A DNA stretch of 64,000 nt from an uncultured Verrucomicrobiae bacterium. GTDB lineage: Bacteria > Verrucomicrobiota > Verrucomicrobiia > Chthoniobacterales > UBA10450. Location of the stretch: NCBI GenBank assembly GCA_963726745.1, contig CAVSDR010000003.1:960001-1024000 (forward strand). The letters are read 5' to 3'. Position numbers: made by a program. Below, one piece after another: positions 33,001 to 39,000 of the stretch; the stretch's first letter is position 1; each line of letters starts with the position of its first letter.

Positions 33001-36000
33001 TGGCCAGCAGGGCCGCGCAAGCCAGCGGTGAGCCGCCGAAAGTGCTGCCTAAATCGCCCTGCTTAAGCTGCGCCGCGATTGCTTCCGTCATCAGCAATGC
33101 GCCGATCGGCACACCGGAGGCGAGGCCTTTCGCGCTCGTGATCATGTCCGGCAGCACACCATGTTTGGTCGCTGCATACGGGAAACCCAGGCGGCCCACG
33201 CCGGTCTGGATCTCATCGAAGATCAAGAGCGTGCCGGCTGCACTCGTTAGGCGGCGGAGCTTCTCCAGGAAGCTGGTCGTCGCCGGTCGAATCCCGGACA
33301 TGCTCTGGATCGGCTCGAGCAGAACCGCGGCGACGGTGGCGAAATCGAAGGCGTCGAGCGCAGCTTCGTCGTTCCAGGGCAACTGCGTGCAAGGCGCAAG
33401 CAACGGCGCGTAAGGCGCGGAGATTTTCGGGTCGTCGGTCAGCGAAAGCGGGAGGGTGCCGCGGCCATGCCAGCCGCCGGCGAAGGCGGCGAAGCGATGG
33501 CGCCCGGTGATTTTGACGGCCACCTTGAGCGCGTTCTCGTTCGCTTCGCTGCCGCTATTGCAAAAAAAGACGCTCGCCATGCCGGCGAACCTAACGAGTG
33601 CTTCCGCGGCTTGATTCCGCACCGGCACTTCCGCGGCGGTGCTGTAGAATAAAAGCTCGTGCGCCTGCGCGCTGATCGCGTCGGCTATTTTCGGGTGCGC
33701 GTGCCCGGTGCTGCAGACGCAATGGCCGCCGTAAAAGTCGAAGTAGCGGCGGCCTTCCGCATCGAAAACGCAATCGCCTTTCCCGCGCACGAGCGGAAAC
33801 GGGTAGGGCGGGTAGGTCGGTAGGAGCGCGGCGCTCAAGGATGATATTCCTGGAGGCTCTTCACGGTGATGCCGTGACTTTGCAGGGCGCGAATCCCGAC
33901 CACGCTGGCCTGGGCGGCGCGCATCGTGGTGATGATCGGGATCTTCGCGGTGCGCGCGCGGCTGCGCATGGTCAGCTCGTCTTCGCGCGGAATTTTGCCG
34001 CTCGGGGTGTTGATGATCAGCTGGACGTCGCCGTTCATGATCCGATCGAGCACGTGCGGCCGACCTTCGCGCAGCTTGAAAACGCGCGTCACCGGCAGGC
34101 CGGCTTCGCTCAAGGTATCGGCGGTGCCGCTGGTCGCGATGATCCCGAAGCCTAACGAGAGGTAATCCCGCGCCAGCGGGACGACGCGCTGCTTGTCGGT
34201 GTCTTTCACGCTGATGAAAACGTTGCCTGTTTTCGGGAGCGGCGGCGGCGCGGCCATCTGCGACTTCGCGTAGGCGCGGCCGAGGTCGACGTCGATGCCC
34301 ATGACTTCGCCGGTGGATTTCATCTCCGGGCCGAGGGCGGTGTCGCTCCCGAGATAACGCAGGAACGGGAAGACCGGCTCCTTGACCGAGAAATGTTTCG
34401 GCAAAATCTCTGCGGTAAAACCGAGCGTGCTCAGCTTTTCGCCGGCCATGACTTTGGCCGCGAGCTTGGCCAGCGGAACGCCGATCGCCTTGCTCACGAA
34501 CGGGACCGTGCGCGAGGCGCGCGGGTTGACCTCGAGCACGTAGAGGTCGTCGCCTTTGACGGCGAACTGCACGTTCATCAGGCCGCGCACTTCGAGCTCA
34601 CGCGCCATCGCTTTCGTCGCGGTGGAGATTTCAGCCAGCACTTTGTCGGGGAGCGAAAACGTCGGGATGGCGCAGGCGCTGTCGCCGCTGTGAATGCCGG
34701 CGAGCTGGACGTGTTCCATGATCGCGCCGATGACCGCGGTCTCGCCGTCGGCAATGCAATCCACATCCACCTCGACCGCGTCCTCGAGGAAGCGGTCGAC
34801 CAGAATAGGCCGGTCGGGGCTGACCTCGATCGCCGTCTGCATGTAGCGCGCGAGATCGGTGTCGTTGTAGACCAGCTCCATCGCCCGTCCGCCAAGGACA
34901 AACGATGGCCTAACGAGCACTGGATAGCCGACACGCTGCGGCGATCGCAAGCGCTTCCTCCGCGCTGACTGCGGTGCCGCTGGGCGTTTGCCGCAGGCCG
35001 AGCTTGTCGAGCATGGCGGCGAAAAGCTTGCGGTCTTCCGCTTTCTCGATGCTCTCGGGTTGCGTGCCGAGAATGGGGACGCCGGCCGCGCGCAGGCCGG
35101 CGGCGAGGTTGAGCGGAGTTTGTCCGCCGAACTGCACGATCACGCCCTCGGGTTGTTCCTGGTCGTAAATGTTGAGCACGTCTTCGAGCGTGAGCGGCTC
35201 GAAGTAGAGTTTGTCGCTGGTGTCGTAATCGGTCGAAACGGTCTCGGGATTCGAGTTCACCATGATCGTCTCGAAGCCGAGCTCGCGGAGCGCGAAGGCG
35301 GCGTGCACGCAGCAGTAATCGAACTCGATGCCCTGGCCGACGCGATTCGGGCCGCCGCCGAGGATCATAATCTTCCGGCGATCGCTCCGACGCATCTCGT
35401 TCTCGGTCCCGTAGGTCGAGTAGTAGTAGGGAGTAAAAGCTTCGAATTCCGCCGCGCAGGTGTCGACCAGGCGGTAAGTCGGGATCACGCCTAACGACTT
35501 ACGAAGGTCGCGGATCGCGGACTCCGATGGAATTCCAGGCGACCGCGAGCTGGCGATCGGAGAAGCCGAGCTTCTTCGCGCGGCGGAGGGTGTGGAGGTC
35601 AGGCTTCCAGCCTGACTCGGCGAGCAGGCTTCCAGCCTGCTCATCTCCTAACTGCAAAACGGCCGCATCACGTAGAACAAACGAACCGGACGCCAATCCG
35701 GCCAGATCGGGATTCCGCCGGATATATTCCCGCGAAGCCGCCAGATGCGCTGCGTCGTGGACAATCGTGTCGAAGCTCTCAGCCATCCAAACCGGTCCGG
35801 CATGCTGCAAGTCGCGGTTGAGTGCATTGGCAGTGAAGGATTTCCAGGAATGCAGTATCTCGCCGAGGGTCCGTCCCTCGTTAGGCCGGACGAGAACATG
35901 CACGTGGTTAGGCATGACCACGAAGGCGTCGAGCGCGTAGCGTTCGCCGTCGAAATGCTCGAGCGCTTCCGCGACAACCTTGGCGGCAGCCGGTTGCGCG

Positions 36001-39000
36001 AGCAGGCAGCTGCCATGGCCGCGGTCGAGCCATTCCTCGCGGTTTTCTTCGCAGAGGCGGAGGTATGAGCGGGCGGTTTGCCAATCCCATGGCTGAGGGT
36101 GCGCAGCCACGAATCGCTCGGTTTCCTCGCGCCACTGCTCGAGGACTTCTGCCGGGACAGAGTCGGCCAGGCGGAAAGTGACGAAGTAGGTCGCGCCGGG
36201 TTGTTCCCAGTGGGGGAGATGGCGGCGGGTTTGGTGGATTGCGGCTTGTGGGTCCAGGCCCTGGAAGATTGGTGGCTCTTTGCGACGGGCTGGAAGCCCG
36301 TCGGCCGAGTCAGCCTGGAAGCCTGACTTCCGGGCTTGTGGCAGGTCCGCGGCAGCTTCCACGATTTGGCGGATGTTGTGCAGGAACCACGGGTCGATTT
36401 TCGTCAGCTGGTGGATTTCTTCGGTCGTTAGGCCGTCCTGGAAGGCTTGGGCGACGTAGAAAATGCGCTCGGCGTTCGGGACGGCGAGCTTCAGGCGGAG
36501 CGCCTCGGGGTCGACGCGTTTTTCGGCGCCGTCGGCGCAGAGGCCAAAACGTTTGATCTCAAGCGAGCGCAATGCTTTTTGTAGCGCTTCCTTGAAGGTG
36601 CGGCCGATGGCCATGGCTTCGCCGACGCTTTTCATTTGCGTGGTGAGCGTCGCGTCTGCTTGCGGAAATTTTTCGAAGGTGAAGCGCGGGATTTTGACCA
36701 CGCAATAATCGATCGTCGGCTCGAAGCTCGCCGGCGTCTCGCGGGTGATGTCGTTGCGGATTTCGTCGAGGGTGTAGCCGACCGCGAGCTTGGCCGCGAT
36801 CTTAGCAATCGGGAAACCGGTGGCCTTGGAAGCGAGCGCGCTCGAGCGGGAAACGCGCGGATTCATCTCGATGACGCACATCCGGCCGTTCTGCGGATTG
36901 ACAGCAAATTGAATGTTCGAGCCGCCGGTCTCGACGCCGATCTCGCGGATGACCGCGAAGGAAGCGTCGCGCATGAGCTGGTACTCGCGGTCGCTTAAAG
37001 TCTGCGTGGGCGCGACGGTGATGGAGTCGCCGGTGTGCACGCCCATCGGATCGACGTTCTCGATCGCGCAAATGACCACGCAGTTGTCCGCGCAGTCGCG
37101 CATCACCTCCATCTCAAATTCCTTCCAGCCGACAAGCGATTCCTCGATCAGGACCTCGCTCACGGGGGAAAGCTCGAGGCCGAGGCCGGCGATCTGGTCG
37201 AGTTCCTCGCGGTTGTAGGCAATGCCGCCGCCGCGTCCGCCGAGGGTGAAGGCCGGGCGGATGATGAGCGGGAAGGTGCCGATGTTGTCGGCAATTGTCG
37301 AGAGCTCGCCTAACGAGTGCGCGACTCCGGAGCGCGGGACGTCGAGTCCGATGCGGAGCATGGCTTCCTTGAAGAGCTGGCGATCTTCGCCCTTGGCGAT
37401 GGCCTGGGCATTCGCGCCGATGAGCTTCACGCCGTGGCGCGCGAGCGCGCCGTTGCGATTCAATTCCATCGCGGCATTGAGCGCGGTCTGGCCACCCATC
37501 GTCGGGAGGATCGCGTCCGGCTTCTCGCGTTCCATGATCGCCTCGATCACCTCGGGAGTGATTGGCTCGATGTAGGTCCGGTCGGCAAATTCCGGATCGG
37601 TCATGATCGTGGCCGGGTTCGAATTAACCAGCACCACCTGGTAGCCCTCCTCGCGCAACGCCTTGCAGGCTTGCACCCCGGAATAATCGAACTCGCACCC
37701 TTGGCCAATGACGATCGGGCCGGAACCGATAAGGAGGATTTTCTTGAGCTCGTTGTTGCGCGGCATCGGCGCGCGAACATTAGACGAAAAGGTTGGCGCG
37801 TCACGAAGGAATGCTTCGCTGGGCGAGATGCCCAGGAGGCCCACAGGCGGAACGCCTGGGCGACACGGCCGACGCTACGCGGCGGCAGCGGCGCGGCGCT
37901 GGCGGTCGAGGTAGACCTTACAAATTCCCTTCATCCGCGTGAGGATGTAATAGGTCGTTTGGCTGCGCACGCGCACGAGCTCCGCACCGACGATGCGGGT
38001 GACGAAGTCGCTGGGTAAATCGATGATCTCCTGCGGCGTGGCGCCATCGAGGCCCTTGCACAAAATGGAGGCCATCGCGCGGGTGAGCGTTTGCACTTCC
38101 GGGCCGAGGGTCATGCGGAAGTGCGCGCGGCCTTCGTCGTCCACCTGCAGGTAAACGCCCACGGTATCGGCGCATTCCTCGTCCTTGCGCACGTCTTCCA
38201 GCTGGAAAGTTTCGCCCGCGCGCGGCTCCTGTTTGCGCGCGCTGTCGGCATAGGAAACGAGGGTCTCGCGGCGCTCCACTTCCGGCAACATCTCGAAGAG
38301 GTGGATGATCTGGTCGAGCTTCGGCGGATACATCGGTTTACTCATGCACGCCGCTCCGGCGCGGACAAGTGCCGCACAAATTCCCCGACCAGTGGAAAGT
38401 GATCCGAGGCGACACACGCGAGGGCAGTGCGATGGACCTCGAGCGAGACCGGATGGAGCGCGGCATTGGTGAAAATGTGGTCCACCGCCAGAGTTGGCCA
38501 TCTCGTCGGATAAGTCCGGCGCGGGTGCGGCGAGGGCAACAAGGCCCGCGCTTCGCGCAAAGTGCTGGCAAAAATCTGGTGGATGCGCGAACCGGGCCGG
38601 CTATTGAAATCGCCCATCAGGAGAAGCGGCTCATCTGTGGGAGCGGCCCCGAGATGCTCGGTTTTGACCAGCGCTTGCGCCTGGAGAAGACGCTCCGACA
38701 GCCCGAGGCCGAAGTGGGTATTGATCGTCTGCACGCGCCCGATTTCCGTCTCCACCTCGGCCCAAAGCGCGACCCGCTGCTCGCGGCAATACCAGGTGCC
38801 GCAGCCAGGCAATTCAATCGAGCGCGCATGCGTGAGCGGGAAGCGGCTGATGACTGCATTGCCATACTGTTCCTCCGCGCGGCGCATCGCCGGCTCGAAG
38901 AGAAATTGCCAGCCGAGCTCGGCCGCGATCGCCTGCGCCTGGTCGACGCCCGCCGAGCGCGCCCGGCCGAGGTCGAGTTCCTGCAAACCGACCAGATCCA

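Follow-up and report, generated by a model that had tools for sequence, protein, structure and literature searches.

RAYTs are usually regarded as transposases that do not jump, that are vertically inherited, and whose benefit is unknown; for the free-standing ones, a benefit to the host or the maintenance of REPs has already been proposed. Inteins and homing introns, in turn, reside in frame in conserved genes, form site-specific lineages, occur as filled, remnant and empty alleles, and spread horizontally.

REPtrons, as outlined in three reports (PMC3479197, PMC8266576, PMC6006769), comprise a TnpA-REP (or RAYT) and its flanking REPs, that of E. coli (4ER8) being an example. They combine a Y1 HUH fold, carrying NHVH and YIxxNP motifs, with inverted, footed hairpins on both sides, and are found in single copy. 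TnpA-REP is a monomer (PMC3479197). Where the TnpA-Y1 classification is set out, subclass 2.4 is recognized by NH[IFV]H, WQ and YIxNNP motifs and by double-foot REPs, and unexpectedly long TnpA-Y1 proteins were discarded as gene fusions or annotation errors (PMC6006769). REPs also occur within genes, in Opitutus terrae and others (PMC3733652) and inside subclass 2.4 tnpA (PMC6006769); these, like the Rickettsia RPEs, are palindromes translated as in-frame peptides within loops that tolerate them, the Verrucomicrobia included. Last, the "orthoswitch" described for RAYT orthogroups places different REP classes around RAYTs at one syntenic site (PMC3686654).

Here, we describe a REP-RAYT-REP cassette that lies in frame within CarB. 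It has the fold, motifs, hairpins and single copy of a REPtron, but it has no start or stop of its own and sits inside an essential ORF; most CarB cassettes carry GGAA/GGAG feet, genomic REP copies are few, and the phylogeny is incongruent with that of the host. Intragenic REPs and RPEs are non-autonomous inserts of tens of residues, whereas CarB holds a whole transposase. All four traits of inteins and homing introns named above are common with the CarB cassette.

The carB locus

The host is a soil bacterium whose genome is 94.7% complete. The window, the whole stretch of DNA analysed, has 64,000 nucleotides, and all coordinates (Table 1) are positions in it, 1 being its first letter. An ORF of 755 aa (35499-37766, minus strand) is CarB by its Pfam matches to CPSase_L_D1, CPSase_L_D2 and CPSase_L_D3, the last in two stretches; the carB 5' part also matches PRK05294 over its cut-off. 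Between the two CPSase_L_D3 stretches lies a Y1_Tnp match (aa 609-684; 25.2 bits, cut-off 23); the insert is in frame within a loop of the oligomerisation domain, as first proposed. Aligning an empty relative to 1BXR places this loop at E. coli CarB ~475-487. This carB is the sole copy in the genome, carA is present, and a class-III aminotransferase gene (argD-like) follows downstream, its start overlapping the carB stop.

The ORF stops at 35499-35501 because of a +1 frameshift near 35525-35528. The first-pass annotation had put this frameshift about 10 codons past the insert; it lies ~22 codons past the outer REP foot, and there is a second slip near 34940. Both look like assembly errors. Of 16 conserved loci that were checked in the assembly, 6 show frame changes, among them rpoB, alaS and thrS. 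No sequencing run contained half of the words of the window, and none of RNA was listed as containing them. Four runs of DNA reads, aligned at 85% likeness, gave no indel at either carB slip and no piece bridging the slips.

Table 1. Features of the carB locus, in positions of the window
Feature	Position	Strand	Details
REP-RAYT-REP cassette	35594..36331	-	outer foot to outer foot; 738 bp = 246 codons, without own start or stop
Left REP doublet, read as protein	36283..36331	-	GGAA foot 36331-36328; hairpin 36327-36309 (one mismatch); second hairpin 36303-36283
Right REP doublet, inverted	35594..35642	+	GGAG foot 35594-35597; hairpin 35598-35616; second hairpin 35622-35642
RAYT (Y1 HUH) domain	35670..36278	-	~203 aa; extra helical segment of ~55 aa ahead of HUH strand
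HUH motif (H-V-H)	35898..35906	-	
Catalytic Tyr of YIxxNP motif	35724..35726	-	
His where relatives have Arg	35757..35759	-	matches E. coli R104 of guide-binding motif, by motif register
carB 5' part	36332..37766	-	carboxyphosphate domain and first part of oligomerisation domain; ATG at 37766; Pfam D1, D2, D3; PRK05294
carB 3' part	33835..35593	-	end of oligomerisation domain, carbamoyl-phosphate domain, MGS; stop overlaps start of downstream gene
First +1 frameshift of carB in this assembly	35525..35528	-	produces stop 35499-35501
Second +1 frameshift of carB in this assembly	34936..34942	-	near 34940

Anatomy of the cassette

The REP doublets on the two sides of the insert, already reported in the first-pass annotation, form a 44-nt inverted repeat that is 86% complementary. 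The folding z-scores of the two lie between -4.0 and -4.7, and none of 200 shuffles was equally stable. The GGAA/GGAG foot seen here recurs in most CarB cassettes, GTAG/GTGG being found in some relatives and in the ValS, PurL and ClpB cassettes. As a lead only, with exceptions and few independent origins, the residue at the position of E. coli H101 is His with GT feet and Arg or Thr with GGA feet.

Between the REPs, this copy keeps the PNHVH motif and the catalytic Tyr that had been claimed for it. Both His of the HUH motif are invariant in 113 of 113 CarB inserts and the Tyr is present in 112; among the genome-derived inserts, the figures are 46/46 and 45/46. The position matching R104 holds Arg in 110 of the 113, and His in this copy only among the 46. 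The match to NF047646 is indeed below cut-off (64.1 bits, E 1.2e-17, and 57.1 bits, against 80), and that model leaves the extra N-terminal helical segment uncovered.

The predicted structure of the orthologue in G016 has 4ER8 as its top structural match (Z 14.1, rmsd 2.8, 134 aligned), above IS608; the TnpA-REP domain is modelled as folded between CarB helices, with low-confidence linkers. This likeness came from the fold search; when the RAYT core was compared with the sequences of the PDB by phmmer, weak, unrelated matches were all that appeared. The IS200/IS605 family, with its short core, many copies and frequent tnpB, was considered and set aside: the element here is single copy, there is no adjacent tnpB-sized ORF within carB, and 4ER8 ranks above IS608.

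The cassette thus has the Y1 HUH core with a single Tyr and the inverted, footed hairpins of RAYT/TnpA-REP, but it scores below the NF047646 cut-off and is not free-standing and vertically inherited with abundant extragenic REPs. Compared by motif alone, NHVH and YIxxNP fit subclass 2.4 (PMC6006769), with W-M in place of W-Q in this subclade.

Searches with tblastn, PF01797 and NF047646 each give one RAYT match for the genome, which upholds the earlier count. The cognate REP occurs at two other genomic sites only. It lies inside thiC, as noted before, and is there locally in frame; its other site, assigned earlier to the end of icmF, does lie at the end of a methylmalonyl-CoA-mutase-family gene, but probably just outside it. 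The genome has one ComEC-family match. It also holds a highly iterated 8-mer, which could be an uptake sequence.

Distribution and lineages among relatives

In a first survey, the cassette was present in 13 of 55 carB loci of relatives, and in the genus 19 of 31 family-level loci had no RAYT. It was present in 35 of 40 further loci, which were chosen for long frames. All filled loops are free of stops (13/13 and 35/35), and dozens of unbroken fusions occur in independent assemblies. Where both ends of a main-family insert were called, the distance from foot to foot is divisible by 3, in 10 of 11 and in 17 of 21 cases. The cassette is under purifying selection, with dN/dS of 0.07-0.18 in 8 of 8 picked close pairs and a median of 0.15 in the 44 of 105 cassette pairs that are not saturated.

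REP-only remnants were found at the CarB loop, and RAYTs, in frame and with their motifs intact, lie not only there but in ValS, LeuS, PurL, ClpB and a restriction-modification protein, all as claimed earlier. The main family resides in dozens of host proteins; the family counts 2,778 proteins of 357-2000 aa at E<=1e-20. Databases already name many such proteins CarB/RayT. A class-level sample of 20 loci, taken from 150 listed rows and including 13 selected because their frames were long or odd, contained no RAYT at the CarB loop. Two long frames, the 1,446-aa frame of G015 and the 1,411-aa rpoB of G053, were discarded as carriers, neither having a RAYT motif.

RAYTs cluster by host site (CarB, ValS, PurL). 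A single branch separates all 46 main-family CarB inserts from the ValS and PurL inserts (SH-aLRT 88, or 95 for a set of 45), and across genera the CarB inserts are each other's closest relatives when compared with the ValS, PurL and ClpB inserts of the same genomes (G012, G017, G024, G026, G031). The main family is therefore one carB-bound lineage, not the product of many independent insertions. Distant inserts with other REPs had been read as independent insertions. Such inserts are real (28-38% identical; 4 of the 40 further loci, none of the first 55), and these four loci, a second RAYT family, form their own clade (support 83/96). This second family entered the same CarB loop separately, and for it alone the earlier reading holds; in it, the inserts of RecG and those of AlaS are intermingled (5 and 4 changes). 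Differing REPs as such mark cassette types exchanged between alleles.

Exchange between carB alleles

Across species and genera, cassettes have passed from one carB allele to another, the carB flanks staying with the host. On the tree of the flanks, 17 genus labels are accounted for by 16 changes, the fewest possible, so that the host genera are recovered perfectly; this tree shares several groupings with the rpoB tree. The same tree needs 39 changes for cassette state, where the minimum is 8, and AU tests reject each of four cassette types as a host clade (p 4e-43, 3e-70, 0.02 and 1e-75). Three sister carB alleles hold three cassette types, one from the second family. Between G289 and G280, the CarB protein differs by 2% and the RAYT by 48%. 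The G312 cassette is a chimera, whose last ~180 nt match G337 at 0.80-0.93, the match stopping at the cassette end. Such a site-specific lineage spreading among the alleles of one gene is what a homing element shows.

How might this come about? The cassette is in frame, bounded by footed hairpins, and tied to this site as a lineage. Our preferred reading, to which we give a probability of roughly 0.55, is that it is a mobile REP-RAYT-REP unit, carried as an unspliced extra CarB domain and exchanged between alleles much as inteins are, with homing driven by the RAYT. The fusion would be translated from carB signals, and the REP-coded peptides would serve as flexible linkers, letting both domains fold. 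The RAYT, presumably monomeric, would nick single-stranded DNA beside its own REPs. Together with this nick, recombination by the host between one carB allele and another, probably following DNA uptake, would exchange the resident cassette for a different one, or fill a loop that is empty or has REPs only. If the RAYT were lost, a REP-only remnant would stay behind, to be lost in turn or re-invaded. This cycle would resemble intein homing, a tolerant surface loop taking the part that splicing plays there.

Several observations weigh against homing. An empty allele has no REP, and therefore offers no evident cleavage target for drive. Cassette state retains some clustering with respect to the host tree (mean 45.5 changes when shuffled, against 39), and some close pairs look vertical. 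The G312 chimera and G310/G315 are the only candidate recent transfers, nearly all cassette pairs being saturated at silent sites. In 60-nt segments, flank co-conversion was seen neither beside cassettes of the same type (same versus different type, 0.790/0.777 and 0.693/0.689) nor when distant hosts were compared in this way (0.732/0.749 and 0.630/0.628), and for this reason the recombination route is put forward conditionally. This copy, moreover, has His for a conserved Arg, a carB frameshifted twice in this assembly, and only two other cognate REP sites in its genome.

Alternative explanations

The fusion might be translated and the RAYT kept for host benefit or REP maintenance, the swaps being ordinary homologous recombination between relatives to which the RAYT contributes no activity. 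Recombination through shared flanks would also yield site-bound lineages; one end of the chimera lies inside the RAYT; the ComEC match and the iterated 8-mer would suit uptake; and syntenic RAYTs with switched REPs are described (PMC3686654). The orthoswitch, however, as presented there, is REP mutation around a resident intergenic RAYT, whereas here RAYT and REP change together, against the host tree. Co-converted flanks, again, were not seen, and the RAYT is absent from 19 of 31 loci in the genus, so that any benefit is dispensable. REPs are rare here, unlike in canonical systems, and canonical RAYTs are presented as vertically inherited and congruent with their hosts (10.1101/2021.07.10.451892). 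We consider passive exchange unlikely, if still worth attention. If instead each filled allele had arisen by its own de novo transposition, from a RAYT at another place in the genome into a loop that tolerates inserts, the separate entry of the second family, its intermixed RecG and AlaS inserts, and the many host proteins of the main family would fit; the closeness of CarB inserts across genera, and not to other inserts of their own genomes, largely refutes this for the main family and makes it very improbable overall.

Improbable, too, is removal of the cassette before it matters, as RNA (IStron-like), as protein (intein-like) or by programmed DNA excision, the in-frame state being a fail-safe. 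In many alleles, a cut at the REP feet would indeed bring the sequence back into frame and leave a loop roughly as long as an empty one. But there are no Rfam matches at E<=1 over 33800-37900, as a group I intron or IStron would require, and the hairpin flanks, 109 nt in total, are too short to contain a ribozyme core. The Pfam hits of the CarB ORF include no intein or Hint family, and no splice-junction residues are conserved, the ends being variable REP-coded peptides. The RAYT, which has no start codon of its own, must be translated to be under selection. Compared with inteins and introns, the CarB cassette has no splicing domain or ribozyme that we could find, its nuclease is a single-strand HUH transposase and not a double-strand homing endonuclease, and its site is a variable surface loop where inteins occupy a conserved motif. 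It is hardly credible that the cassette is an artefact of the assembly, or that it sits as a dead passenger in a pseudogenized carB. The two frameshifts, the His for Arg, and the reads that gave no confirmation speak for it, but frame changes recur in other conserved loci of this assembly, carB is single-copy beside a carA, and unbroken fusions abound elsewhere.

Significance

Intragenic REPs are, of course, already known. In the literature within our scope (most subscription journals lay outside it, and the supplements of PMC3733652 and PMC6006769 were covered by term only), we found no description of whole RAYTs inside host ORFs. The CarB-embedded RAYT is a candidate for activity, and its translation as a CarB fusion is what we infer.

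The cassette shows a route to parasitise essential genes without splicing. It may even be, more tentatively, that a third kind of homing element exists beside inteins and introns: a splicing-free HUH transposase cassette, made as a domain of essential enzymes, which by nicking single strands at its own translated hairpins would enter one fixed gene loop and displace rival cassettes there across species. The inserts also mark natural loops, in CarB and many other proteins, that tolerate a 250-residue domain. Here, a RAYT lineage is bound to one loop of an essential enzyme and yet moves between species, and the self-mobility of RAYTs can therefore be put directly to the test on matched alleles in the filled, remnant and empty states.

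The cassette in carB

The first-pass annotation held that a REP transposase (RAYT) lies in frame within CarB, flanked by REPs, and that it is the only RAYT of the genome. Both statements hold. A Y1_Tnp domain interrupts the oligomerisation domain of CarB, which Pfam matches in two stretches, and an inverted repeat of two REP doublets, each far more stable than shuffled sequences, bounds the insert. The insert falls below the cut-off of the NF047646 RAYT model (64.1 vs 80 bits), retains the PNHVH and YIRRNP motifs, and is the sole match found by tblastn and two profiles in a genome that is 94.7% complete. 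Alignment of an empty relative with E. coli CarB puts the insertion site in a loop at about residues 475-487. The source names of homologues indicate Chthoniobacterales, Verrucomicrobiota.

The annotation also reported a frameshift about 10 codons past the insert. The slip is present, but it lies about 22 codons past the cassette, and a second follows near 34940. Sixteen conserved loci of this assembly were tested and 6 have frame changes, purL, alaS, thrS and rpoB among them, and thiC has several frame breaks. The gene carB is single copy here, and carA is present on another contig. The carB slips are read as probable assembly errors.

Features in the window
Feature	Position	Strand	Remark
carB, 5' two-thirds	end at 35499	minus	open reading frame
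Cassette, outer foot to outer foot	36331 (GGAA) to 35594 (GGAG)		738 bp = 246 codons
Putative arginine biosynthesis genes argD, argF, argB, argE, argH, argG	27262-33838	minus	directly after carB; from translations, the first also domain-scanned
8-mer CCTAACGA, examples	34152, 34911, 35491, 35879, 36427, 37309

Occurrence in relatives

That relatives hold RAYTs at the same loop and in other core proteins had also been claimed, and is confirmed for CarB, ValS, PurL, LeuS and ClpB. In a first survey (61 genomes searched, one unpublished genome left out, 55 carB loci read), 13 of the 55 loci carried a RAYT, one a REP remnant, and the remainder were empty. None of the conclusions depends on a genome marked unpublished. 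Filled loops numbered 12 of 31 within the family, counting the source genome, and 1 of 24 outside it. Two additional filled alleles lie at contig edges. A second, family-wide survey searched 201 genomes and used the best 150 of 188 matches; 40 loci were picked because their frames reach 1,140 aa or more, and these give no frequency estimate. They comprised 31 RAYTs like that of the source genome (the main family), four of a second family (shorter, 28-38% identical), two REP-only remnants and three empty loops. No filled loop in either survey contains a stop codon.

No RAYT was found at this loop in 20 loci read from class-level relatives. In several of these (L174-L180, L184, L185), carB is divided into two genes at the loop, which again points to tolerance there.

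Other proteins serve as hosts. Frames of at least 600 aa surround 28 of the 38 best RAYT matches in relatives: CarB (15), ValS (8), PurL (2), LeuS, ClpB and a restriction-modification protein (1 each). The second family resides in RecG, AlaS and ThrS. Representatives of RAYT-like clusters were then taken (best 150 of 844 at E<=1e-30), and 83 new ones of at least 300 aa were domain-scanned. A clear host domain appeared in 56, known from protein sequences alone; the hosts include LeuS, AlaS, Mur ligases, poly(A) polymerase, exonuclease VII, HypF, PdxA and many methyltransferases. Many of the fusions carry automatic labels at JGI. Some chains (P0002, P0003, P0033, P0128 and others) have two RAYT domains, possibly as tandem or nested cassettes. 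Separately, one relative's RpoB (L159, G053; 1,409 aa) carries about 130 inserted residues, in which no RAYT motif is seen.

Selection and fold

The inserts are under selection. All 113 CarB inserts compared have both HUH histidines and 112 have the tyrosine, in a set biased towards close matches; dN/dS is 0.07-0.18 across eight close pairs. Retention of frame alone would not conserve catalytic residues. The source-genome copy has His at a site where 110 of the 113 have Arg.

An AlphaFold model of the intact region of one relative, G016 (mean pLDDT 78.7, pTM 0.56), gives a confident RAYT domain whose best structural match is TnpA-REP 4ER8 (Z 14.1, rmsd 2.8), with low-confidence REP-coded linkers. 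The CarB helices on both sides align jointly with CPS structures, a weak to moderate match (Z 6.5-9.5). TnpA-REP is described as monomeric, in contrast to IS200 enzymes (PMC3479197); as a monomer, the RAYT may be suited to life as an inserted domain.

Site-bound lineages and exchange of cassettes

RAYT phylogeny follows the host site, with CarB inserts apart from the ValS and PurL clades. A carefully built tree unites 14 of 15 CarB inserts in one clade (94/95), the placement of the G047 insert being unsettled, and in an enlarged tree all 46 main-family CarB inserts fall together on one side of a branch. In the second family, the four CarB inserts make up a separate clade (83/96), and those of RecG and AlaS are mixed with each other. 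Main-family subclades match distinct REP sequences at both cassette ends.

Within the carB site, cassettes are exchanged between alleles. AU tests rejected host-clade status for all four cassette types (RAYT subclade plus its REP) tested, whose definition drew on the RAYT tree and the REPs once the trees had been viewed. On a tree of 74 carB flanks, whose empty alleles are those of the first survey plus one only, genus labels need 16 changes, the minimum, and cassette state needs 39 (minimum 8, shuffled mean 45.5). The rpoB tree shares several groups with it. Among the closest host pairs, G280/G337 and G222/G350 are vertical cases; G289 is swapped relative to both G280 and G337, its RAYT being 48% different. 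In one chimera (G312), the RAYT belongs to one type and the final 180 nt, up to the cassette boundary, to another. In G271, two similar REP dimers flank the RAYT; in its sister G239 there is just one dimer. Layered or mismatched ends were also noted (L002 of G012, L004 of G023, L213 of G280, L207 of G354, P0026, P0047), the layering being fresh REPs of one type enclosed by decayed REPs of a different type.

How would such exchange proceed? CarB and RAYT would be translated as one fusion; the RAYT may nick DNA beside its own REPs, as is known for other TnpA-REP enzymes (PMC8266576); and the cassette may be exchanged by recombination with incoming carB alleles. That the RAYT participates is given a little better than even odds (about 0.55), and true homing driven by it is a more tentative proposal. 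Co-conversion of the flanks was looked for beside cassettes, and none was found. Exchange might instead be passive, proceeding around a domesticated RAYT enzyme, a reading we consider less likely. Removal of the cassette by splicing or excision is unlikely.

REPs and repeats elsewhere in the source genome

A lone REP doublet at C3:16027 belongs to the type found at the ends of carB cassettes in G021, G029, G031 and others, as expected if the source lineage formerly carried that type. Another REP family, whose foot is of GGAG type, occurs at C2:18511, C3:311417, C3:1038583, C6:437969, C6:872525 and C7:135367; most copies form inverted dimers with a spacing of about 105-120 bp, and no second RAYT was found in the genome.

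The 8-mer CCTAACGA has 1,514 copies genome-wide, 28-fold above third-order Markov expectation, and its consensus widens to GCCTAACGAG. It lies frequently within genes and almost never in close inverted pairs. The family's rpoB loci contain it; six loci outside the family and two inside do not. It may serve as a DNA uptake sequence or be HIP1-like; the literature matches listed held nothing relevant.

A new REPtron variant

Intragenic REPs have been described, mostly from O. terrae (PMC3733652), as have RAYT subclasses, with long fusions discarded (PMC6006769), and the orthoswitch (PMC3686654). RAYTs are described as extragenic and vertical in 10.1101/2021.07.10.451892; the analysis also covered 10.1101/119735, PMC3184786 and PMC13114784, the last of which gave no matching passage. 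In the literature searched, no description of a complete REPtron within a host ORF was found. The in-frame REPtron in carB is real and widespread, a new variant of the REPtron. What this analysis adds is the rapid swapping, at one carB loop, of site-bound cassettes from two RAYT families.
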